Notes: generated by a model from the letters alone, not told the origin. Positions 18,907 to 55,646 are shown, counted from the stretch's first letter. The stretch is DNA of 64,000 nucleotides from an uncultured Flavobacteriaceae bacterium (GCA_964451785.1 CAYVJG010000012.1:5620-69619), one strand, 5' to 3'. Translations and numbers: made by a program.

Positions 18907-19311
18907 TCAATACAAGTAGCTTTGTAAGATGACAGTGGCACTAATCTCATCGATTAAAGCTTTGTTGCGACGCTTCTTTTTGCCCAATCCACTGTCTATC
19001 ATCGTCTGAAAAGCTATTTTAGAACTGTAGCGCTCATCGACACGCTTGTAAGGCATCTCAGGGAATTTAGCGGTAAAAACTTTTAAAAATTCTTGAATAT
19101 ACACCTCGCTTTGTGATGGGCTGCCGTCTTTTTGCTTAGGTTCACCAACTAATACAAGTTCAACCGACTCTTTAGCAAAGTAATCTGTTAAAAATGGAAT
19201 CAATTCTGGCGTGTGGACGGTGGTTAACCCCGATGCAATAATCTTCATCTCATCTGTAACCGCTATTCCACAGCGTTTCGTGCCGTAATCTATTGCTAAA
19301 ATCCTTGCCAT
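18907..19311 (-). CDS. ruvX: Holliday junction resolvase-like protein RuvX/YqgF
   Basis: MARILAIDYGTKRCGIAVTD is the typical YqgF N-terminus. The track ORF's 43-codon upstream extension runs into repeat R3 and is rejected. Confidence 0.88.
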   Translation of the reverse strand: MARILAIDYGTKRCGIAVTDEMKIIASGLTTVHTPELIPFLTDYFAKESVELVLVGEPKQKDGSPSQSEVYIQEFLKVFTAKFPEMPYKRVDERYSSKIAFQTMIDSGLGKKKRRNKALIDEISATVILQSYLY

Positions 19312-19408
19312 ATTTTTATTTTGCACAAAGATAAAGTTTATTCTTAAACTGCTTTTGATTTTTCTGTTTTGGTTTTGGAGAGTGAGCGTTTCAGTTGCCA
19401 TAAGGAGT

Positions 19409-19541
19409 CTAATACCGTATGGATAAATTAAATAGTCCAATTTCGACTTTGTCTCATTGTACTAGTAATTTATATACCACGATATTATACCTATAAAGAA
19501 TATTCTAAATCGGACTAAAAAAATAATTCTAACGGGTATAA
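19409..19541 (+). mobile_element. R3 MITE/REP-like element, copy 1 (133 bp)
   Basis: Begins ctaataccgtatgg and ends gggtataa. Nearly the same sequence occurs at 54455-54586, 25687-25819 (reverse) and 41667-41786. Confidence 0.8.
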
Positions 19542-19731
19542 TATTCTAGGGTAAAGAATAGGTGTAAGAATTATTTATGATAATATTCCCGTCCGTTTCC
19601 TGTGTTAAAAGTGGGGCTTTGGGTTAGAAAGGGAAAGCGACGGTGTTTCCAACGATTGCGATTTTTCTTTTCCCCAGCCCTAAAGGTTGTGAAAATCATG
19701 AAACTTTGTTTTTGCTGAAGGTTATTAGAAT

Positions 19732-19789
19732 AATTTTACATATCTTTAACAAACGCAAATCAACCGTGTTACTTTTAACAAAACCCTAA
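19732..19789 (+). repeat. Left 58 bp direct repeat bracketing the RHS island
   Basis: aattttacatatctttaacaaaCgcaaatcaaccgt..aacaaaaccctaa matches 23338-23395 with 5 mismatches. It is in frame with the downstream RHS ORF. Confidence 0.85.
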
Positions 19790-19818
19790 GGGGGAAACAC
19801 TATGACGAATTCAACCGC

Positions 19819-21711
19819 TTGCGCGAGGCCAATGGCTTTTACATCGCCCCTAATGACACCCCGCAGAATCAATTGCTGCGGCAGCAATACCGCACCAGTA
19901 TGAGCTATAATGACAATCAAGACATTAGCGTGAAATACCAAGACCACCACCAAGCCGTGGTGGGCAACTTGACGCCGCCTCAGTCGAGCGCGCTGCAGCA
20001 GGTTTTTCCGACAAGCTACATCTTGGTATATGACGATTATGCCACGGGCAGCTTTTCGGCGGGCAACTACACCTATGTGCAGCCACACGCCCCGCGCACC
20101 CTGGTGGTGAAACCAACTGTTCCTACGGCGAGCAACGACCCGCGCATTAGTCATAAAAAACTGCAGTATGACGCTAATGGAAATTTGACAAGCGTTTCTC
20201 AGAACATTACAACTCCCGGAGCGCCATTAGCCGACACGCAGCTGCTTTTGCGCCAGTATCGCTGGGACGAAGAAAACCGATTGCGCGCTGTTGACTTGCA
20301 GCCTGAAAACCCAACTAACCAGCCCAAAATTGCGGCTTACACTTATGATGCAAGCGGGCAACGCGTGGTGCGCTATGTGTCTGAACAGTTGAAAGCTTAT
20401 TTTAGTGGTCACCCCTCCGGGCGGGCACACCAACTGGAAATAGCGGTGTATCCCAGTGGTTTTATCTCGGCAAAAGCCTTGACTGAACGGGGGATACACA
20501 AGGAATTTATGACCTATACCAAGCATTTTTACATCGGCAGTCAACGCGTGGCTAGCGTGAAGGGCGGCAGCAATGGTGTGGGGCGGTATTTGAGCAACAG
20601 TAGCTTGGAAACGGCAAGCTCCTATTTTGGAATTTTGCAAGAAAAGCGACAGACCGCCACCCAAGCCTTAGCCGCCGATTATGCGGCTTTCAACAAAACC
20701 CTAACCCTGCCACAGCCGTTTGCGCTCTCGCCCATTACGTCAAGCTCCTACCGACAACAGCGCCACACCTACTGGTTTCACCCCGACCACCTCGGCAGCT
20801 CGAGTTATATTTCAAATATAAACGGGAGGATTTCACAGCATATAGAATACTTCCCTTTCGGCGAAACCTTGGTTGAAGAACACAAAAACTCCAATAACTC
20901 GCCTTATAAATTTAATGGCAAAATGCTAGACGCTGAAACCGGGAATTATTACTACGGCGCAAGATATTACAACCCTAAATGGAGCCTGTGGCTGAGCGTT
21001 GACCCGCTGGCGGAAAACTACCCCGGCTGGTCACCGTATAATTATACCTTGTATAATCCGGTGCGGTTTGTGGACCCGGATGGGCGGAGTGTGGCGATGC
21101 CGGACAACTGGTATAAGAACAAAGAAACAGGTGAAGTAATTTGGATTGATGGGGATAAGGATTATTACGGTTACGAAAACTTAGGATTTGATCATCATGA
21201 GGTTTTTCGTAAAAACCCTGATGATTTGTGGTTGACCCGTGTACAGTATGATGGAGATACAAAAACAAAATCGGTTAACCGTCAAGTGGTCAAACATTAT
21301 GAATCGAGTACAATGCGCAAAGGATACAATTTTGTAATGGACAACTTTGTCGGTTCTACGATGGCAGGGGTACAAGAATTGGGTTGGATAGTCGTTGGGA
21401 CAGGAATTGCCGTAAAAGCCCAGTTTAAAGAAGTGATGAATGGCGGCGATGGTTTGGGCATACACATTGATATGGCTATGCCCATTTATGTCATTCAAAA
21501 CGGGAAACTTATGAAAATGGATTTAGCTGAATATTCCTTTGGGGAATTAGTGAGTAATGGGTTTTCGGGACTGACTGCATTGGCTGGAGGGACAAGTACT
21601 GTGTTTAAAACAGGAATAAAAGAATGGTATGGTGAAGCTATTGATTATTTGGCAGATAAAACCTTAGGATATTATATTGGCGAAGGATTGGGAAAATTAA
21701 AGGGGAAGTAA
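19819..21711 (+). CDS. 5'-truncated RHS/YD-repeat core fragment with an unrecognised C-terminal toxin tip
   Basis: YD repeats are present (QYDANGNLTS, YTYDASGQRV). The RHS-associated core end is YYYGARYYNPKWSLWLSVDPL..YNPVRFVDPDGR at ~20950-21087. About 200 aa of lower-GC tip follow. The frame is open from 19750 and the track start is a TTG. No N-terminal RHS part lies upstream. Confidence 0.85.
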   Translation: MREANGFYIAPNDTPQNQLLRQQYRTSMSYNDNQDISVKYQDHHQAVVGNLTPPQSSALQQVFPTSYILVYDDYATGSFSAGNYTYVQPHAPRTLVVKPTVPTASNDPRISHKKLQYDANGNLTSVSQNITTPGAPLADTQLLLRQYRWDEENRLRAVDLQPENPTNQPKIAAYTYDASGQRVVRYVSEQLKAYFSGHPSGRAHQLEIAVYPSGFISAKALTERGIHKEFMTYTKHFYIGSQRVASVKGGSNGVGRYLSNSSLETASSYFGILQEKRQTATQALAADYAAFNKTLTLPQPFALSPITSSSYRQQRHTYWFHPDHLGSSSYISNINGRISQHIEYFPFGETLVEEHKNSNNSPYKFNGKMLDAETGNYYYGARYYNPKWSLWLSVDPLAENYPGWSPYNYTLYNPVRFVDPDGRSVAMPDNWYKNKETGEVIWIDGDKDYYGYENLGFDHHEVFRKNPDDLWLTRVQYDGDTKTKSVNRQVVKHYESSTMRKGYNFVMDNFVGSTMAGVQELGWIVVGTGIAVKAQFKEVMNGGDGLGIHIDMAMPIYVIQNGKLMKMDLAEYSFGELVSNGFSGLTALAGGTSTVFKTGIKEWYGEAIDYLADKTLGYYIGEGLGKLKGK

Positions 21712-21899
21712 TGGGATTACCTGGTTTAATAGGGATGTGTATCAGGTTTATATTTGTATTTCATTGCAGTTTCAAAAAGAAAAATGAGGCAACAAAAAAA
21801 GATATGGATGCAGAGAAAGCCAAGGATGGTCAGGTCGGATTAATTGGCTTAATTGTAATTATTATAGCAATGGGGGTTACTTATGAATTGATGCACTAA
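21711..21899 (+). CDS. 62 aa two-TM membrane protein, candidate cognate immunity protein
   Basis: Its ATG overlaps the toxin stop (gTAATGg). Hydrophobic segments are GLPGLIGMCIRFIFVF and VGLIGLIVIIIAMGV, joined by a charged loop. A paralogue sits at 22140-22331. Confidence 0.6.
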   Translation: MGLPGLIGMCIRFIFVFHCSFKKKNEATKKDMDAEKAKDGQVGLIGLIVIIIAMGVTYELMH

Positions 21900-21939
21900 G
21901 TAGTTAAGGTTATTTTACAGTATTCAAAACGGGAAACTA

Positions 21940-22140
21940 ATGAAAATGGATTTAGCCGAATATTCTTTTGGGGAGTTAGTGAGTAATGGGTTTTCTGGGA
22001 TAACAACTTTGGCCGGAGGTGTTGGTTCTGTACTGAAATCAGGAATTAAAGGAAAATTTGGAGATATATTAGATTTTTCATCTGAGAAAGTCACAGATTA
22101 TTATATTGGAGAGAGATTAAAGGAGTTAAAAGAGAGATAA
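21940..22140 (+). CDS. Orphan copy of the toxin C-terminal tail (last ~70 aa)
   Basis: The frame is open from 21904. IQNGKLMKMDLAEYSFGELVSNGFSG is identical to the main toxin at 21493 onward, then diverges. There is no RHS core upstream. Confidence 0.6.
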   Translation: MKMDLAEYSFGELVSNGFSGITTLAGGVGSVLKSGIKGKFGDILDFSSEKVTDYYIGERLKELKER

Positions 22141-22331
22141 TGGGGTTGCCAGGTTTAGTAGGAATAGTTATAAGATTTATTTTTGTATTTCGCTTTAGTC
22201 TAAAAAAGATGGACAAAGCATCGAGGGAAAATTCTGACAGCGAAAAACAAAAAGATGCACAAGTAGGTCTAATAACCATTTTCGTCTTTATAATCGGCGT
22301 GATAATTTGGGGTGCGATATGGTATCCTTGA
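22140..22331 (+). CDS. 63 aa two-TM membrane protein, second immunity paralogue
   Basis: It has the same TAATG overlap with the orphan tail. MGLPGLVGIVIRFIFVF..VGLITIFVFIIGVII parallels 21711-21899. Confidence 0.6.
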   Translation: MGLPGLVGIVIRFIFVFRFSLKKMDKASRENSDSEKQKDAQVGLITIFVFIIGVIIWGAIWYP

Positions 22332-22334
22332 TTA

Positions 22335-22757
22335 TTGTTTCACGGAATTTACATAGACGGAATAGGCAGCACTAATATGGGTGTTATAACAGGTTCAGGC
22401 GCGAGCTCTCGAATAGGCTACGACGAGCTGACAGGTTTTGGAAGCGAAGCCGGCAGTAGCCGATTGGGGAAACTACTTCAGTCGGTGGCGTTATTTTTTC
22501 AAGCGTTGATGCCGGGAGAGGATAACACAATGACCACTACCGTTGTGAAACCGGGGAGGACAAATCAGCTTCCGGCGGAAAAAAAGGTGAAAATGATAAA
22601 ATTTAAAGTGGTGGAAATTAACAATAAAACGTTTTACCCATCAGGTGCGTATGACTATAGAGAGTTCGATACACTAGTCCCTATAAATGGTGTCGAAAAT
22701 TTTAAAATAATGACAAGTAAGGATAGAGATTCAGTCTATAGATATCCGAAATATTAA
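22335..22757 (+). CDS. Hypothetical protein; possible further orphan toxin fragment
   Basis: The frame opens immediately after the stop of the preceding gene. The track start is TTG and the first ATG is at 22377. The 5' half is G+C-richer (Gly/Ser-rich) and the 3' half AT-rich. I recognise no motif. Confidence 0.4.
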   Translation: MFHGIYIDGIGSTNMGVITGSGASSRIGYDELTGFGSEAGSSRLGKLLQSVALFFQALMPGEDNTMTTTVVKPGRTNQLPAEKKVKMIKFKVVEINNKTFYPSGAYDYREFDTLVPINGVENFKIMTSKDRDSVYRYPKY

Positions 22758-22764
22758 TAACAAT

Positions 22765-23271
22765 ATGAAAAAAATATTAATAACAATCATATGCATAGGG
22801 GTATTGTTTTCTTGTAACAATACTAAGCACTCTTCTCATAATAAGGAAAATATAAAACCTTTAAAAGATACACTATGGCTTGAATTTACCCCTGAAAATA
22901 ATGATTCACTAAAGGTTGCTGTAAATTATTATTTTGGGATAGACACATTGGCTTCCCAAGAAGTTATGGATAGAGCTACTATTTTTTACTTTACTTTTAG
23001 AGAAATATCGATTGATGAATTAAAGAAAATTATTTTCTTAAAGTATAGTGAAAAACGGAGAAATGAAGTCAATGAAAATAAAATCAGCCAAATTCATATA
23101 CCTGTTAATAAGCAGTATAGTTTCTATGTGCAATTAGGAACTAAAAAAGTTCATCATTTAACAGGAATGGTTGTTGACAATTTTTTAATTAAAATTAAGG
23201 ACTCTATAAAAAGCGATACCGTAGTTGTAAGAAAAGTAGGAACGTCTATAGAACAGTACTTTAAGTTTTAA
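22765..23271 (+). CDS. Small lipoprotein; candidate immunity partner of 22335-22757
   Basis: 168 aa with leader ICIGVLFSC. It starts 8 nt after the preceding stop. It is AT-rich with no recognisable family. Confidence 0.45.
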   Translation: MKKILITIICIGVLFSCNNTKHSSHNKENIKPLKDTLWLEFTPENNDSLKVAVNYYFGIDTLASQEVMDRATIFYFTFREISIDELKKIIFLKYSEKRRNEVNENKISQIHIPVNKQYSFYVQLGTKKVHHLTGMVVDNFLIKIKDSIKSDTVVVRKVGTSIEQYFKF

Positions 23272-23337
23272 ATTGAGTTAAGTCAGTTCTAATAGCCTAT
23301 TGGCAGGTAAATCTTACACATAATTGCATAGCAAAAC

Positions 23338-23420
23338 AATTTTACATATCTTTAACAAATGCAAATCAACCGTCTCGCTTTCAACAAAACCCTAACCCTG
23401 CCACAGCCGTTTGCGCTCTC
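23338..23420 (+). repeat. Right 58 bp direct repeat plus an exact 44 bp copy of internal RHS sequence
   Basis: 23338-23395 matches 19732-19789. 23377-23420 is identical to 20686-20729 (gctttcaacaaaaccctaaccctgccacagccgtttgcgctctc). It contains an ATG at 23359 heading a 25-codon mini-ORF. Confidence 0.85.
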
Positions 23421-23500
23421 TTGCTTTCTTATATAAATCCTCTTTATAAAGGCTTGTAGTTTGGTGGAGTTCCTTATATTTATCGCAAATTTAGAAGGAC

Positions 23501-24319
23501 ATGGAAGAATTAAAAAATAAGATTTTAGCAGCTTGGGATAATCGAGAGCTCTTAAAAGAAGAAGCAACTAAAGCAGCCATTAAAGAAGTGGTTAACTTAT
23601 TAGATGCAGGTAAATTGCGCTGTGCTGAACCAGATGCTAATGGCGGATGGCAAGTTAACGAATGGGTTAAAAAAGGCGTTGTGTTGTATTTTCCTATTCA
23701 AGAAATGAAAACCCTCGAAGCTGGTATCTTTGAATATCACGACAAAATGCCACTAAAATCAGGCTATAAAGAAAAAGGCATTCGTGTGGTGCCTAACGCT
23801 GTAGCTCGCCATGGCGCTTATATTTCAAAAGGAGTCATCATGATGCCTAGTTATGTCAACATCGGCGCTTATGTTGATGAAGGTACTATGGTTGACACCT
23901 GGGCAACAGTGGGAAGTTGTGCTCAAATTGGCAAAAATGTGCACCTTTCGGGTGGCGTGGGCATTGGTGGCGTGCTCGAACCTCTACAAGCGGCTCCTGT
24001 GATTATTGAAGACAACGCATTTATCGGTTCGCGTTGTATTGTAGTTGAAGGGGCACGCGTTGAAAAAGAAGCAGTACTAGGGGCTAATGTGGTGTTGACG
24101 GGATCAACTAAAATTATCGATGTCACTGGCGATGAGCCTAAAATTATGAAAGGAGTAGTGCCAGCGCGTAGTGTGGTGATTCCTGGAAGCTATACCAAAT
24201 CTTTTCCGGCTGGTGATTTTCAAGTGCCTTGTGCCTTGATTATCGGAAAACGCAAGGAGAGTACTAATAAAAAAACATCGCTTAACGATGCACTTCGTGA
24301 ATACAATGTGTCTGCTTAA
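23501..24319 (+). CDS. dapD: 2,3,4,5-tetrahydropyridine-2,6-dicarboxylate N-succinyltransferase
   Basis: 272 aa with hexapeptide-repeat region (GAYVDEGTMVDTWATVGSCAQIGKNVHLSGGVGIGG) and a typical DapD N-terminus. Confidence 0.9.
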   Translation: MEELKNKILAAWDNRELLKEEATKAAIKEVVNLLDAGKLRCAEPDANGGWQVNEWVKKGVVLYFPIQEMKTLEAGIFEYHDKMPLKSGYKEKGIRVVPNAVARHGAYISKGVIMMPSYVNIGAYVDEGTMVDTWATVGSCAQIGKNVHLSGGVGIGGVLEPLQAAPVIIEDNAFIGSRCIVVEGARVEKEAVLGANVVLTGSTKIIDVTGDEPKIMKGVVPARSVVIPGSYTKSFPAGDFQVPCALIIGKRKESTNKKTSLNDALREYNVSA

Positions 24320-24361
24320 TACGGAAATGATTTTTGGTCTATTTTGAATGTCACTTCCGTA
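24320..24361. repeat. Minimal 42 bp R4 element (the two R4 termini joined head to head)
   Basis: tacggaaatgattttt-gg-tctattttgaatgtcacttccgta. It begins on the nucleotide after the dapD stop. Confidence 0.7.
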
Positions 24362-24433
24362 TAAGCTTTAATAAATAACTTTTTAAAGGACTTGCCTCTC
24401 TTTGCGACAAGTTCTTTTTTTAGCACTTTAATT

Positions 24434-24787
24434 ATGGAAAATACAGTTTTTTATTTGTCGTCATGTTCAACCTGTAAACGTATTTTAGACAGTGTAAATC
24501 TACCTGAAGATTTTGCGCAACAAGATATCAAAAATCAGCCGATGACCGCTGCTCAGCTCGATGAACTCAAAGCTTTGTCAGGAAGTTATGAAGCGCTGTT
24601 TAGTAAGCGTGCTCAGTTGTATCGCCAACGCAACTTAAAAGCGCAAAATTTGACAGAATCAGATTATAGAACTTTGCTTTTAGAGCACTATACATTTTTG
24701 AAACGACCGGTATTTGTTATCGATGGACAGGTTTACATAGGTAATTCTAAAAAGATTGTCGCTCAAGTGCAAGAAGCCTTGCACTAA
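24434..24787 (+). CDS. ArsC/Spx-family (arsenate reductase-like) protein
   Basis: MENTVFYLSSCSTCKRIL has the N-terminal Cys motif. The start is set at the ATG at 24434 rather than the upstream TTG of the track ORF. Confidence 0.75.
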   Translation: MENTVFYLSSCSTCKRILDSVNLPEDFAQQDIKNQPMTAAQLDELKALSGSYEALFSKRAQLYRQRNLKAQNLTESDYRTLLLEHYTFLKRPVFVIDGQVYIGNSKKIVAQVQEALH

Positions 24788-24805
24788 ATTCCAAAAATGT
24801 AAACC

Positions 24806-24839
24806 CATAAAAAAACCGCTTTTCAATAGAGAAGCGGTT
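24806..24839 (-). terminator. Terminator hairpin between convergent genes (T-run on the minus strand)
   Basis: aaccgcttttc-aata-gagaagcggtt, with aaaaaaa on the plus side, which reads as a T-run for the minus-strand M48 gene. Confidence 0.7.
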
Positions 24840-24859
24840 AATTAATCGACAAGAAAATA

Positions 24860-25675
24860 TTAGCGTTTAAACTGGGTGACGCCAAATTTTCGAGCAGTAG
24901 CTTTTGCAGCATCTACCCAACCTTGAATGTTGTTAATGCGGGTTTGATTAGAGGGGTGAGTGCTCAAAAACTCAGGAGGTTGTTGTCCACCATTTTGACT
25001 CATACGCTGCCATAAACTGACTGCTACACTAGGGTCATAACCCGCTACAGCCATTAAATCTAGTCCCAATTTATCGGCTTGGGTTTCAAATTTTCTACTG
25101 TAAGGAAGGGTAACCCCTAGCTTAGTGCCAACGCCATAAGCCTTATTGAAAATTTCTCCGTATTCAGTGTTGCTTAAGGCCTCACTACCCACTTGACCAA
25201 CCATACCTTGAATTTGCTCTTGACTCATGCGGCGTTGCCCATGATTGAGTAAGGCATGTGATACTTCGTGCCCTAAAACTACGGCTAAGCCCGCTTCATC
25301 TTTGGTAATAGGTAGAATGCCGGTGTACACAACAATTTTTCCGCCAGGCATGCACCAGGCATTTACTTGGTTGCTCTTTACCAAGTGATATTCCCATTTA
25401 TAGTCTTTTAAATAACCTGCTTTGCCTTTGGCACGTAGTATTTTTTCAGCAGCTTCGGCTATTTTCTGCCCTACTTTTTTGACTAATGCCGCTTCAGGGG
25501 TGCCTGTTACAACTTGATTCTCCTCTAAAAAAGCATCATATTGACTGAAAGCCATAGGAAAAAGTTGTGAGTTTGGTACTAAAGCTAAGTTTTGTTTTCC
25601 TGTAAAAGGATTGACTTGACAAGCTTGCATGATGCCTATAACTAGCAAAGCTGTAATAATTTTTGAGGTTTTCAT
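24860..25675 (-). CDS. M48-family zinc metallopeptidase, lipoprotein
   Basis: 271 aa with leader VIGIMQAC and the HEVSH motif within VLGHEVSHALLNHG. Confidence 0.85.
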   Translation of the reverse strand: MKTSKIITALLVIGIMQACQVNPFTGKQNLALVPNSQLFPMAFSQYDAFLEENQVVTGTPEAALVKKVGQKIAEAAEKILRAKGKAGYLKDYKWEYHLVKSNQVNAWCMPGGKIVVYTGILPITKDEAGLAVVLGHEVSHALLNHGQRRMSQEQIQGMVGQVGSEALSNTEYGEIFNKAYGVGTKLGVTLPYSRKFETQADKLGLDLMAVAGYDPSVAVSLWQRMSQNGGQQPPEFLSTHPSNQTRINNIQGWVDAAKATARKFGVTQFKR

Positions 25676-25686
25676 GAGTTAAGATG

Positions 25687-25819
25687 TTATACCAATTAGA
25701 ATTATTTTTTAGTCCGATTTATAATATCTTTTGTAGGTATAATACCGTGGGCCATAAATTAACGAGTACGATGAGATAAAGTCGAAATTGGACTAGTTAA
25801 TTTATCCATACGGTATTAG
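25687..25819 (-). mobile_element. R3 MITE/REP-like element, copy 3 (reverse orientation)
   Basis: It is the reverse complement of the 19409-19541 family. Its ggtataa end lies 11 nt upstream of the M48 start codon. Confidence 0.8.
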
Positions 25820-26070: not shown

Positions 26071-26574
26071 ATGAAAACGAGATGGTGTTATATGATTGTA
26101 TTGCTTTTGATGTGGGGCTGTCAAGGAAATGCCCAGGAAAATAAAGATATGCCTAAATTTGCTGTACAAAAAACAGAACAGCAATGGCGAGCAGAACTCA
26201 CTCCTGAAGAATATCATATTTTGCGTGAAGCAGGTACTGAACCGCGATTTTCAAGTCCTATTTTAGATATTAAAGAAAAAGGTAAATTGGTTTGTGCCGC
26301 TTGTGGCAATGTGGTGTTTCTCAATCAATATCAATTTGAATCAGAATGCGGTTGGCCTAGTTTTGATCGCGCCGTAAAAGGAGCGGTGGTTTACCGAACT
26401 GATTACAAATTATTTTATCCGCGCACAGAAGTGTTATGCGCAAAATGCGGTAGTCATTTAGGACACTTGTTTAACGATGGTCCGCGTAAAACAACCGGTA
26501 AACGTTACTGTATCGATGGAGTAGCTTTAAACTTTATTGCTGATAAAAGCCCTATAAATAATAAGGAAAAATGA
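26071..26574 (+). CDS. msrB: Peptide-methionine (R)-S-oxide reductase with an N-terminal signal peptide (exported)
   Basis: 167 aa with leader MKTRWCYMIVLLLMWGC. It has two CxxC zinc motifs (CAAC, CAKC), CGWPSF, and the catalytic RYCIDG. Confidence 0.85.
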   Translation: MKTRWCYMIVLLLMWGCQGNAQENKDMPKFAVQKTEQQWRAELTPEEYHILREAGTEPRFSSPILDIKEKGKLVCAACGNVVFLNQYQFESECGWPSFDRAVKGAVVYRTDYKLFYPRTEVLCAKCGSHLGHLFNDGPRKTTGKRYCIDGVALNFIADKSPINNKEK

Positions 26575-26963
26575 AAAAATTTGCGATAGAAAAAACGGAA
26601 AGTGAATGGCGCAATCAGCTTTCTGAAGAACAATTTCACGTGTTGCGCGAAAAAGGAACTGAATATCCACATACCGGAAAGTACAATCTTCATTTTGAAG
26701 ATGGTACTTACGCTTGTGCCGGATGCGGTCAAGAATTGTTTGACAGTTCAACAAAATTTGAAAGTAGTTGTGGTTGGCCTAGTTTTGATAAAGGCCTTGA
26801 AGGTCGAGTGATCTTTAAACGCGATACGAGTTTTGGCATGCTGCGCACCGAAGTGCTCTGTGCAAACTGTGGTGGTCACTTAGGGCATGTATTTAATGAT
26901 GGTCCTACAGCTACAGGTGAGCGATTTTGTGTAAATTCGGCCAGTCTAACGTTTAATAAATAA
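26571..26963 (+). CDS. msrB: Peptide-methionine (R)-S-oxide reductase (cytoplasmic)
   Basis: 130 aa with no leader. Motifs are CAGC, CANC, CGWPSF and RFCVNS. It overlaps the upstream msrB by ATGA. Confidence 0.9.
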   Translation: MKKFAIEKTESEWRNQLSEEQFHVLREKGTEYPHTGKYNLHFEDGTYACAGCGQELFDSSTKFESSCGWPSFDKGLEGRVIFKRDTSFGMLRTEVLCANCGGHLGHVFNDGPTATGERFCVNSASLTFNK

Positions 26964-28756: not shown

Positions 28757-28777
28757 TATAAGATAATTCTCAATTTA

Positions 28778-28937
28778 TACGAAAGTGATTTTTGAAATAG
28801 ACTAAATATTTTGTAGTAAAAATTTCAAAGGTCAAGGCAAAAAGCACAGGCATAGCCAGAGCTATGATGAGCATTTTTAACGCAGAGATTTGTAATTTTA
28901 GCAGAAAGATTCGTCTATTTTGAATGTCACTTTCGTA
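28778..28937 (-). mobile_element. R4 MITE-like element (160 bp), full copy
   Basis: Termini are tacgaaagtgattttt.. and ..tattttgaatgtcactttcgta. It is roughly nine-tenths identical to the inverted copy at 41866-42025. It fills the CPBP-menE spacer. Confidence 0.8.
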
Positions 28938-28948
28938 TTACATAAAAC

Positions 28949-41478: not shown

Positions 41479-41602
41479 GCTGTTTTGAAAAAACTAATAT
41501 TGAACCCACTCCGGGATTCGCGTGTTGTTTGCACCTAGCCTAATAGCTACGCTACGTTTGCTGTGGGTTAATCACATTAAACTCCTACGGAGTTTCCTCA
41601 AA
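41479..41602 (+). repeat. Repeat module R1, copy B
   Basis: Matches 2221-2341, including the two hairpins. Confidence 0.8.
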
Positions 41603-41666
41603 CCCACTAACTCAGGTTTTGGTGTCATTATTATAGGTTTCCTCTCTTTTCTTCAAACGAAATAAG

Positions 41667-41786
41667 CTAATACCATATAGTCCAATGAGACTGCTGTCGA
41701 AATTGGACTATTAATTTGTTACCCACGGTATTATACCTACAAAAAATAGTATAAATCGGGCTGTAAAATAATTCTAATTGGTATAA
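41667..41786 (+). mobile_element. R3 MITE/REP-like element, copy 4 (variant with inverted central hairpin)
   Basis: It has the same termini and right half as the other copies. The central ~30 bp is the reverse complement of the other copies, and 13 nt are missing on the left. Confidence 0.75.
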
Positions 41787-41865
41787 TAAAGTTTGTCCAT
41801 TTACCACTAGTATTTTACTAAGGGAATAAGGTTTTTATCTGGATTCCTTGAACCTTATTAGCTTA

Positions 41866-42025
41866 TACGGAAGTGACATTCAAAATGGACCAATCTTCTT
41901 GTTAAAATTACAAATCTCTGCGTTATAAATGCTCGTCATAGCTATGGCTATGCCTGTGCTTTTTGCCTTGACCTTTGAAATTTTAATGACAAAATATTTA
42001 GTCTATTTTAAAAATCATTTCCGTA
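41866..42025 (+). mobile_element. R4 MITE-like element (160 bp), full copy
   Basis: Runs tacggaagtgacattcaaaat..gtctattttaaaaatcatttccgta. It is the inverted counterpart of 28778-28937. Confidence 0.8.
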
Positions 42026-42101
42026 TTAGTAATCCACAAACAGCGCTCAACCATAAACCTTATTAGCTCGTATGTTTTAATATTATTCAAGGAACCACTA
42101 T

Positions 42102-42122
42102 ATAATTTATCCATATGGTATT
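42102..42122 (-). repeat. Solo R3 terminus
   Basis: ataatttatccatatggtatt matches the left terminus of R3 in reverse orientation. Confidence 0.55.
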
Positions 42123-42190
42123 TGTAAAATAATAAACTTTTTCCATGCTCTTCACGCCTCCAAAAGCGACAACCCTACCTGCTGAATAGT
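42119..42190 (+). repeat. Repeat module R2, copy B
   Basis: Matches 2468-2542. Confidence 0.75.
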
Positions 42191-42407: not shown

Positions 42408-42418
42408 TGCCCTCAAAA

Positions 42419-42463
42419 GGCGATGGAGTTCGCCTAAACCGCTTTGTAAGCTGATGACTCCTG
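42419..42463 (+). promoter_or_regulatory. Fluoride riboswitch (crcB RNA motif)
   Basis: ggcgatggagttcgcctaaaccgctttgtaagctgatgactcctg follows the remembered crcB-motif pattern GGCGAUG..CGCC.AAAC..GCUGAUG..CCU. It lies directly upstream of crcB. Confidence 0.85.
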
Positions 42464-42499
42464 TTTTATAATTTGTCGGATAATTTAAATTCTTAAACG

Positions 42500-54454: not shown

Positions 54455-54586
54455 CTAATACCGTATGTATAAATTAAATAGTCCAATTTCGACTTTGTCT
54501 CATTGTACTAGTAATTTATGAACCACGGTATTATACCTATAAAAAATATTCTAAATCGGACTAAAAAATAATTCTAATTGGTATAA
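54455..54586 (+). mobile_element. R3 MITE/REP-like element, copy 2, filling the galK-galM spacer
   Basis: It starts 6 nt after the galK stop and ends 1 nt before the galM ATG. It is near-identical to 19409-19541. Confidence 0.85.
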
Positions 54587-54587
54587 G

Positions 54588-55646
54588 ATGGTAAAGGAAA
54601 AAGATTTTATAGCTGAACACAACGGAAAGCAAACTCGTTTGATTACTCTGACTAATCAGCACGGCATGCAAGTACAAATCACAAATTATGGCGCCCGTAT
54701 AGTGAGCATTTTGGTGCCCGATAAAACAGGCGCATTAATCGATGTGAATATAGGACACAGTTCTATTCAGCAGTATTTATCTGAAAAAGATAACTATTAC
54801 GGTACAGTGGTTGGCCGCGTGTGTGGTCGTATTCGCGATGCACGTTTTACAATTGATGAGCAAACTTATGAGTTAACACCTAATAATGGAGCTAACTTTT
54901 TGCACGGTGGAGAAAACGGATTTCACACACAAGTTTTTGAAATTGTTGAGCAGACCAATGAACGTGTAACTTTAAATTATAAAGCTAAGGATGGAGAAGA
55001 AGGTTTCCCCGGAAATTTAGACTTGACACTTACCTATACCTTGGCGGGCGACAATAGTATCGATTTAAGTTTTGAAGCCGTATCGGATAAAAAAACACCT
55101 CTTAATTTAACGCATCACGCCTTTTTTAATTTGAATGGCGAGGGGAGTGGAACAGTGCTTAAACATCAATTACAAATTTTTACAGATACCTATTTGCCTA
55201 TAAAAGACGATGTGTTACCAACAGGTGAGCTAGCAAAAGTAAAAGATATTGTATTTGATTTTACACAGTTAAAACCAATTGGAGAAGCTATAGATCAACC
55301 CGATCAACAACTTATCTACGGTAAAGGTTACGATCATACTTTTGTGTTGGATACAAAATTTAAACCCGGAAAAATCAAAAAAGCAGCTTATGCCATTGGT
55401 GATCAAACAGGAATTAGCTTAACAGTTTTTACCGACCAACCAGGGATACACTTATATACTGGAAATTTTATGGAAGGGCAGTTTGAATTAAAGTCTGGCG
55501 CTAAGGATGAGTGTAGAACAGCGTTTTGTTTAGAAACACAACATTTAGCTGACGCCCTGAATCAACCGCAGTTTCCGTCAATCATTTTACAGCCACAGGA
55601 AGTGTTTAAAACCCAAACTAAATTTAAGTTTGCTGTAGAAAAATAA
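54588..55646 (+). CDS. galM: Aldose 1-epimerase (galactose mutarotase)
   Basis: 352 aa with NFLHGG, LTHHAFFNL and a C-terminal ..ETQH region. Confidence 0.9.
   Translation: MVKEKDFIAEHNGKQTRLITLTNQHGMQVQITNYGARIVSILVPDKTGALIDVNIGHSSIQQYLSEKDNYYGTVVGRVCGRIRDARFTIDEQTYELTPNNGANFLHGGENGFHTQVFEIVEQTNERVTLNYKAKDGEEGFPGNLDLTLTYTLAGDNSIDLSFEAVSDKKTPLNLTHHAFFNLNGEGSGTVLKHQLQIFTDTYLPIKDDVLPTGELAKVKDIVFDFTQLKPIGEAIDQPDQQLIYGKGYDHTFVLDTKFKPGKIKKAAYAIGDQTGISLTVFTDQPGIHLYTGNFMEGQFELKSGAKDECRTAFCLETQHLADALNQPQFPSIILQPQEVFKTQTKFKFAVEK

Follow-up and report, generated by a model that had tools for sequence, protein, structure and literature searches.

How does the tail end of a toxin gene come to lie between two housekeeping genes that are ordinarily near neighbors, and what would keep it there? 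This question is raised by a 64,000-nucleotide stretch of DNA from an uncultured Flavobacteriaceae bacterium (GCA_964451785.1 CAYVJG010000012.1:5620-69619), hereafter called the window, in which the ruvX and dapD genes are separated by 4,189 bp. An island of ~3.7 kb in this interval carries the tail of an RHS gene, including an intact RHS core, and three toxin-tip/partner modules, and all of its open reading frames (ORFs) point toward dapD. We consider it reasonably probable that the island is a stranded, headless array of RHS C-terminal cassettes in a spacer that normally measures ~100 bp, and that it is either an immunity island or a relic remodeled by recombination.

An RHS fragment inserted between ruvX and dapD

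The gene order def-ruvX-dapD is kept in relatives, and the gap between the last two genes is usually ~100 bp in Flavobacteriaceae, with a median near 105 bp across 137 comparison loci. DapD-anchored loci drawn from 80 species genomes supplied 70 of these in which both genes are present, and the gap is 69-260 bp in 51 of them. RuvX-anchored metagenome loci supplied the other 67, for which the median gap is 105 bp. At none of the 137 loci does the gap contain RHS sequence. The closest relative found, L090 (DapD 89% and RuvX 78% identical), has a 90-bp spacer whose halves resemble positions 19312-19350 and 23440-23500 of the window. Among GTDB species representatives the best DapD identity is 86%, and the DapD of the source organism was recovered exactly only on short Logan contigs; the empty spacer is thus established at the level of the family, not of the strain. 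Set against these short gaps, the interval is an insertion and the inserted DNA is foreign. The first-pass annotation of this DNA had remarked on its foreign look and suggested that relatives be compared.

The beginning of the island encodes recognizable RHS sequence. It lies in an open frame of 654 codons (19750-21711), for which the public gene call (P0001, 603 aa) starts at ATG 19900. The RHS core model TIGR03696 and the YD repeat model TIGR01643 (21.8 bits; cut-off 15.8) both score above their thresholds, and Pfam RHS_repeat scores just below its own (20.2 bits; cut-off 22). The 5,803 RHS homologs detected at E<=1e-5 are colinear with the frame over residues 18-446. The core end, ..YNPVRFVDPDGR, is found at 21052-21087, and the DPxG cleavage motif ahead of the tip can be read in the sequence as ..LSVDPLAE..VDPDGR. 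These results bear out the original assignment of YD repeats and an RHS core end.

The RHS piece is truncated, and it encodes neither a complete shell nor a delivery domain. Its frame is preceded by a TAA codon at 19747-19749. This in-frame stop had been noted previously, along with the lack of an RHS N-terminus or delivery module, but RHS homology itself begins at ~19790-19798 rather than at the stop. Alignments to homologs start at residue 17/18 of the 19750 frame (nt 19798), and the homologs extend 40-470 residues upstream of that point with the shell sequence ..GGPVNHSYT/YDxxNRL.. When compared with a 3434-aa main protein of SpvB/TcdB_midN/FG-GAP/RHS composition from locus L085, the fragment aligns to residues 2468-2909 only, and no other match to this protein occurs in the window. 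The fragment represents the last ~430-440 residues, or ~14%, of a giant (>3,400 aa) SpvB/TcdB-type RHS protein. Neither the rest of the shell nor an N-terminal delivery or plug region, whether PAAR/VgrG-linked or SpvB/TcdB-type, is present upstream. At three loci (L085, L086, and L172), such fragments are arrayed downstream of giant SpvB/TcdB RHS genes with a small gene after each, and in L085 the orphan fragments are 77-99% identical in nucleotide sequence to the 3′ end of their main gene. With its truncated shell, core end, and tip/partner modules, the island fits its initial description as an orphan RHS C-terminal cassette array.

The base composition of the island also changes along its length. 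The G+C content of positions 19790-21087 is 0.513, which exceeds that of anything else in the window (other 1.3-kb segments have a mean of 0.375, a standard deviation of 0.023, and a maximum of 0.423). It falls to 0.40 in the first tip and to 0.27-0.36 in most of the downstream ORFs, where the overall range of 0.27-0.40 is exceeded at 22335-22675 (0.45). The AT-rich drop described in the first-pass annotation is therefore real, although it covers five downstream ORFs (62, 66, 63, 126/140, and 168 aa) and not four. Because the shells of the L085, L086, and L172 arrays are likewise richer in G+C than their tips, this pattern is a trait of the family as well as a mark of foreign origin.

Toxin tips and their partners

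The first module begins directly after the RHS core. The first ~33 residues of tip 1 form a conserved linker (PxxWYxNxxTG..W.DG..GY..LG) that is common to other Bacteroidetes RHS tips. In its fully spaced form, PxxWYxNxxTGxxxWxDGxxxxxGYxxLG, the linker stands directly after the DPxG site (21088-21186 in the window; also in P0030, P0072, P0097, and P0133) and precedes otherwise unrelated toxins in many Bacteroidetes RHS tips; a low-confidence model predicts beta-strands for it. Beyond the linker, tip 1 is rare. Only 19 relatives occur among 1.84 billion representative proteins, and the best of these follow RHS core ends. There is no match to tip 1 in Pfam, NCBIfam, or PDB sequences, no homolog emerged from a word-indexed search with the isolated tip, and a scan of the metagenome loci with a profile of the conserved tip core gave no relative. 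The pLDDT of the AlphaFold2 models is 33 when the tip sequence is used by itself and 49 when 15 aligned sequences are supplied, which is too low for a meaningful fold search.

The stop codon of tip 1 is overlapped by a small ORF with two hydrophobic helices. This pairing recurs in the duplicated module described below, and it is conserved more widely because a homologous toxin tail is also joined to a similar two-helix segment in P0140. The two-helix proteins are putative cognate immunity partners of the tips.

Module 2 is a displaced copy of the end of module 1. Positions 21922-22331 repeat 21493-21899, with ~96% identity over the first ~75 nt and ~70% thereafter. The displaced tail shares 67% amino-acid identity with that of tip 1, and the second predicted immunity gene is a paralog of the first (59-62% identical). 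As judged from the alignment, this gradient of identity is the trace that tip displacement by recombination classically leaves behind.

Module 3 differs from the other two. Its first gene probably encodes part of a toxin-type protein whose C-terminus varies, and its second encodes a lipoprotein that is a putative cognate immunity protein or partner. The lipoprotein has no match in Pfam or PDB, and no relatives of the module 3 proteins were found beyond one allele. That allele, L088, comes from a different sequencing run. It is 100% identical to the window over 21948-22518 and differs at 10 sites in 22519-22667, eight of which lie within the five codons whose amino acid is altered. From 22676 onward, lipoprotein included, the two sequences cannot be aligned. 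Module 3 is therefore polymorphic in nature, with a breakpoint of the recombination type.

Flanking repeats and assembly of the array

Direct repeats, which the first-pass annotation did not contain, lie at the ends originally assigned to the island, 19732 and 23420 (Table 1). The island is bracketed by two copies of a 61-nt element, whose 34-nt core occurs twice in the window versus zero times expected. In the left copy, a segment that we call X is followed by 19 nt that resemble the start of a 44-nt RHS segment (17/19) and then by the start of RHS homology. The right element is a hybrid of X, 3 nt, the 44-nt RHS piece, and the native dapD leader. The 61-nt copies differ at six sites, of which four are grouped where X meets RHS sequence. 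Logan contigs assembled with k=31 break exactly at the 44-nt repeat: L089 covers 20686-23406, and L003 and L001 begin at 23377 and 23391, respectively. Because these independent contigs reproduce it, the repeat-flanked structure exists in the sampled population.

Table 1. Features of the ruvX-dapD interval and its flanks, in window coordinates.
Feature	Position	Strand	Remarks
ruvX	18907-19311	minus	left core-gene flank; Pfam RuvX, E 1.4e-30
Host REP-like intergenic repeat	19409-19544		marks native DNA left of the island
Left copy of 61-nt flanking direct repeat (D6)	19729-19789	plus	X (19729-19770) + 19-nt b segment
Truncated RHS/YD shell fragment	19790-21087	plus	within ORF 19750-21711; ends in RHS core (..VDPDGR)
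Internal RHS segment (D7)	20686-20729	plus	encodes AFNKTLTLPQPFAL; within conserved FxKxLxLPxPF shell motif
RHS-associated core domain	20848-21084	plus	TIGR03696 Rhs_assc_core, 71.6 bits (cut-off 32.5), E 5.6e-20, frame residues 367-445; autoproteolysis motif region intact
Toxin tip 1	21088-21711	plus	207 aa; follows RHS core; rare uncharacterized domain
Putative immunity gene 1	21711-21899	plus	62 aa, two hydrophobic helices (hydropathy); TAATG overlap with toxin stop
Displaced (orphan) copy of last ~70 tip residues	21922-22140 (ORF 21940-22140)	plus	aligns to 21493-21708
Putative immunity gene 2	22140-22331	plus	63 aa, two hydrophobic helices; TAATG overlap
Module 3, first gene	22335-22757	plus	140-aa open frame; 126 aa from ATG 22377
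Module 3, second gene	22765-23271	plus	168-aa lipoprotein: signal peptide + LFSC lipobox (hydropathy, sequence)
Right copy of 61-nt flanking direct repeat (D6)	23335-23395	plus	90% identical to left copy
44-nt RHS remnant	23377-23420	plus	44/44 nt identical to 20686-20729; joined rightward to native dapD leader
Native dapD leader/promoter region	23421-23500	plus	like the dapD-proximal spacer of L090 and L092
dapD	23501-24319	plus	right core-gene flank; Pfam THDPS_N_2 (E 8e-24) + Hexapep

Segment X may also have a role in transcription. Promoters of the Bacteroidetes -33/-7 type follow the pattern TTG...TAnnTTTG. At 19741 and 23347, X has the sequence TATCTTTA, which comes close to the -7 box of Bacteroidetes, and the right copy presents TTG-N20-TATCTTTA at 23324-23354. 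A native -7-like box of dapD, TATATTTA at 23475, is retained. A sigma-70 scan is uninformative for Bacteroidetes promoters. Other interpretations of X were set aside. No attC-like hairpin is evident, as X shows no significant fold (z-scores of -0.5 to +1.4), and X is not the ancestral dapD leader, as the closest relatives do not have it in their spacers. It resembles the leader of locus L097.

The arrangement of the repeats points to the manner in which the array may have been assembled. A model in which rhs tips are displaced through a circular intermediate and a single crossover has been proposed previously (PMC2935791). We infer that the island was built and remodeled by homologous recombination of this C-terminal displacement kind, probably via circular intermediates. 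In that event, the perfect 44-nt repeat would represent the stretch shared by an RHS remnant already in place, which ends at 20729, and an incoming cassette, which starts at 20686. Two versions of this event fit the data. In the first, a circle carrying X, the 44-nt segment (B), the core end, and the tips entered at the 44-nt overlap, and this version explains why the two copies of the 44-mer are perfectly identical and why they have precisely this length and these two edges. In the second, a circle carrying X, the 19-nt b segment, and the shell entered at the 61-nt repeat of a scar allele. The same repeats would permit the island to be lost again, either as a whole through the 61-nt pair (3,606 bp) or, through the 44-nt pair, as the core end together with all tips (2,691 bp).

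What might maintain such an array? The RHS fragment is short of ~85% of the shell and of any delivery domain, and it would be unable to yield an exportable toxin. Selection would most likely keep the small immunity genes, which may protect the cell against the same toxins released by neighbors. Transcription would probably start from the promoter-like element in X and read through toward dapD. The predicted membrane and lipoprotein locations of the partners suggest that the corresponding toxins act on the envelope.

Several points weigh against reading the island as a stranded immunity array or relic. Of the source genome, the evidence concerning a partner gene covers the 64-kb window of a draft assembly. 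The RHS ORF is open over 654 codons and retains an intact core motif, which fits a very recent arrival, and selection on the fragment itself, equally well. The toxin and immunity roles are putative, and the fold of tip 1 is unpredictable (pLDDT 33-49). Furthermore, the promoter call in X is a consensus match only. Finally, this reading does not account for the origin of X and of the b segment, and the two integration models fit equally well.

The genes that surround the island are ordinary. Pfam scans of all ORFs of >=130 aa within ~12 kb on either side found housekeeping families alone: type III glnA, pyrF, susC/susD, dnaG, a DUF5606 gene, def, and ruvX upstream, and dapD, an ArsC-family gene, an M48 peptidase, two msrB genes, and men-type genes downstream. 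No recombinase, integrase, transposase, VgrG, PAAR, type VI secretion system (T6SS), or other delivery gene is present in this range, and there are no tRNA genes in the 64-kb window. The island gave no phage match, and its plasmid matches are weak and confined to the RHS core. A classical genomic island of the integrase type was rejected on these grounds: the direct repeats are present, but there is no integrase nearby and no tRNA gene in the window.

The window has several further features of its own. The REP-like element at 19409-19544 belongs to a family of ~136 nt that occurs in both orientations with 80-93% identity; its copies are at 54455-54589 (93%), 25684-25819 (inverted, 88%), and 41678-41788 (matched over 41702-41788). 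There is also a pair of 169-nt inverted intergenic repeats (28777-28945 / 41858-42026; 89%), further intergenic repeat families at 24334-24367 and at 2282-2542 / 41543-42190, and a set of 65-nt direct repeats clustered around 41.5-42.2 kb. A fluoride riboswitch lies at 42410-42470 on the plus strand (Rfam RF01734, 58.8 bits). The two SelR/MsrB-domain genes at 26071-26963 adjoin, with overlapping ends, and look like a tandem duplication.

Alternative explanations and known systems

Among the other explanations, the one that survives best is that headless arrays are mobilizable units, which would move as circles and insert just upstream of housekeeping genes while duplicating 60-160 nt of target DNA. 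We regard this as possible but doubtful. It draws on a second locus, L170:3400-14647 (GCA_964346785.1, CAYFWH010000006.1), from an unrelated metagenome-assembled genome, where five RHS tail fragments without a head have a ParE toxin-antitoxin pair on one side and a phosphoribosyltransferase gene on the other. This locus is a second headless array with the same architecture as the island. Just as the island is bracketed by the 61-nt repeat and ends in a 44-nt RHS remnant, the L170 array is bracketed by an imperfect direct repeat of ~160 nt (86%) and has a 79-nt RHS remnant near its right end. In L170, the left repeat copy extends to the ATG of the first cassette, and ~100 nt separate the right copy from the housekeeping gene downstream. 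Loci L170 and L171 lack the host REP element and were ruled out as DNA of the source genome.

The two headless arrays also share a 10-mer, TTTACATATC, at RHS 5′ junctions (19735 and 23341 in the X copies of the window; 5956, 10017, and 14341 in L170). It occurs 11 times in 2.13 Mb of other loci, counting both strands, versus five junction sites here. Under the mobile-unit explanation, the TTTTTACATATC junction motif would be part of a recombination or promoter signal. However, only two loci are involved, their flanking repeats differ in sequence, and there is no recombinase near either. X forms no hairpin and has no similarity to the IS200/IS605 left end of L172, and TTTACATATC is short and A+T-rich, with copies within a locus that are duplicates of each other. 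We therefore consider the L170 parallel and the shared 10-mer to be suggestive rather than conclusive with regard to mobility. A more general proposal seems to us equally doubtful. Headless RHS arrays of Flavobacteriia might be mobile units that leave rhs loci as circles, and the promoter-proximal DNA that they duplicate might drive the array from one copy and keep the host gene expressed from the other. A conserved element containing TTTTTACATATC would then mark the 5′ edge of each captured RHS piece, and the island and L170 would be two instances.

Other flavobacterial arrays have features that touch on mobility. In L087:3900-19300 (Flavobacterium sp. CS20) and L172:9800-15800 (Psychroflexus sp. 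MBR-150), a 43-nt palindromic repeat precedes the RHS cassettes, with eight copies counted in L087. Several of these cassettes also include the 23 initial codons of a tnpA gene of the IS200/IS605 type (VQNYRKTSHTTYDCKYHIVWITK), which in P0024, P0028, and P0031 run in frame into the RHS fragment. The L087 array starts beside fragments of a Phage_integrase gene and recalls integron-like or rAID-like arrays. In L173:9400-14800 (Mesonia sp. MT50), RHS cassettes of orphan size without a main gene lie beside a TraG-type coupling protein, an SSB gene, and an rve transposase, which places them in a conjugative-element context. Because a tnpA N-terminal fragment is fused to RHS cassettes in L087 and L172, an IS200/IS605 link was considered for X as well. 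It was rejected, as the junctions of the window and L170 align with the left end of L172 no better than shuffled sequences do. A weak tblastn match at 45.4 kb of the window falls in the gapA/pfkA region and is spurious.

A less probable explanation, and the one put forward in the first-pass annotation, is that the cassettes form a silent reservoir that awaits homologous recombination onto a distant full-length rhs gene, thereby switching its tip. This model is established for enterobacterial rhs (PMC2935791), and the 77-99% nucleotide identity between orphan cassettes and main gene in related arrays would provide a substrate for such switching. The source assembly is also draft-like, with contigs of <=77 kb, and drafts often miss repeated rhs genes. 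The search for a partner points the other way, however. When the shell is compared with 5.8 billion protein clusters, the highest identity apart from the match to itself is 46% (55% for one partial sequence), and identities of 70-74% are reached only over the last ~110-155 residues. The 64-kb window has no second RHS sequence. In addition, the Logan contig L089, from a k=31 metagenome assembly, is unbranched over 20730-23376, across the boundary between core end and tip. Because a copy that is ~85-90% or more identical would be expected to share 31-mers with L089 and to break it, we infer that a near-identical second core end is lacking in the community from which L089 derives. Over this range (the window, the protein clusters, and L089), the evidence argues against a main rhs gene competent for recombination with the island, and the tip-switching role lacks support. 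Recombination with a distant locus would also rearrange the chromosome and not merely swap a tip.

Even less likely, in our view, is a self-acting module of the toxin-antitoxin kind. In this case, translation of the truncated Rhs-CT would begin inside the frame (at ATG 19900 or later), and the product would act in the producer, restrained by the co-translated small membrane protein. The ORF and the core cleavage motif are intact, the downstream genes are translationally coupled through TAATG overlaps, a promoter-like box lies upstream in X, and a precedent is reported for a Salmonella orphan rhs (PMC7043789). Yet expression and toxicity of the Rhs-CT are purely predicted, and partners that are membrane proteins or lipoproteins suggest action from outside or at the envelope rather than that of cytoplasmic toxin-antitoxin pairs. 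The displaced tip 2 fragment, moreover, is clearly non-functional as a toxin.

That repeats caused an assembler to join the island falsely into the spacer is very improbable: short-k assemblies do break at the 44-nt repeat, and the Logan contigs are also compatible with an alternative pairing (R5′-B-dapD plus a 2,691-bp circle), but ordinary reads span 44 nt, independent Logan contigs match 20686-23406 and 23377-25714 at 100% including the T-X-B and B-dapD joints, and the RHS frame is colinear with homologs across 20686-20729.

A stranded headless array, which remains our preferred explanation, has precedents in several known systems. It resembles the dissociated rhs tips of enterobacteria (PMC2935791, PMC3150448), in which an A+T-rich tip and then a small gene come after a core fragment rich in G+C, displaced tips succeed one another, and direct repeats fit the insertion of a circle by single crossover. 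Unlike those orphan tips, the fragment in the window does not lie downstream of a main rhs gene but in a housekeeping intergenic spacer, and a partner with an identical core was not detected. A core-sharing full-length rhs neighbor, by which orphan modules are classically recognized, is absent from the window, and the best shell match in the databases is 46-55% identical. The parent families differ as well: the island derives from a Flavobacteriia SpvB/TcdB-type RHS protein of >3,400 aa, whereas the enterobacterial parents are T6SS-type Rhs proteins of ~1,400 aa. The orphan rhs of Salmonella Typhimurium (PMC7043789) similarly lacks the delivery part, has its own immunity gene, and may be expressed from an internal start. 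It directly adjoins its full-length gene, whose core sequence it shares, whereas the island has no such neighbor and is known from sequence only.

Orphan immunity arrays of Bacteroidales (AID and rAID-1) protect the cells that carry them (bioRxiv 10.1101/471110). Like these arrays, the island combines co-directional immunity-type genes with toxin remnants, has a non-host composition, and likely offers protection from the toxins of neighbors. It differs in that it has three modules only and lacks a XerD-like recombinase, a repeated intergenic motif, and a mobile-element context. No XerD-like tyrosine recombinase, which in rAID-1 stands at the 5′ end of the array, was found within ~12 kb, and there are no integron-like repeats between the cassettes, just the two flanking repeat copies. 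The L087 array of Flavobacterium sp. CS20 looks closer to rAID than the island does. A relationship to TcB/TcC-type and teneurin-like YD-shell proteins is also apparent, in that full-length relatives carry SpvB, TcdB_toxin_midN, and TEN_YD-shell domains. The arrangement of a shell, an aspartyl-protease core, and an encapsulated variable tip is common to this family. Unlike the Tc-type proteins, the window has no SpvB, mid-N, or FG-GAP domain and no TcA-like partner.

The island is thus a known kind of remnant; what is new is its tip family and its stand-alone, repeat-flanked position, for which there is at least one parallel. RHS delivery and RHS tips have been little studied in marine Flavobacteriia, and the island supplies a rare, uncharacterized toxin domain together with a conserved two-helix membrane partner. 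Together with L170, it also provides a lead on how RHS cassettes reach sites that are not rhs loci. The usual view of orphan RHS tips is that they serve a neighboring toxin gene as spare parts, yet this island keeps intact polymorphic modules with no detectable partner. It therefore presents a clean natural case in which to ask if marine Flavobacteriia retain such arrays as immunity islands.

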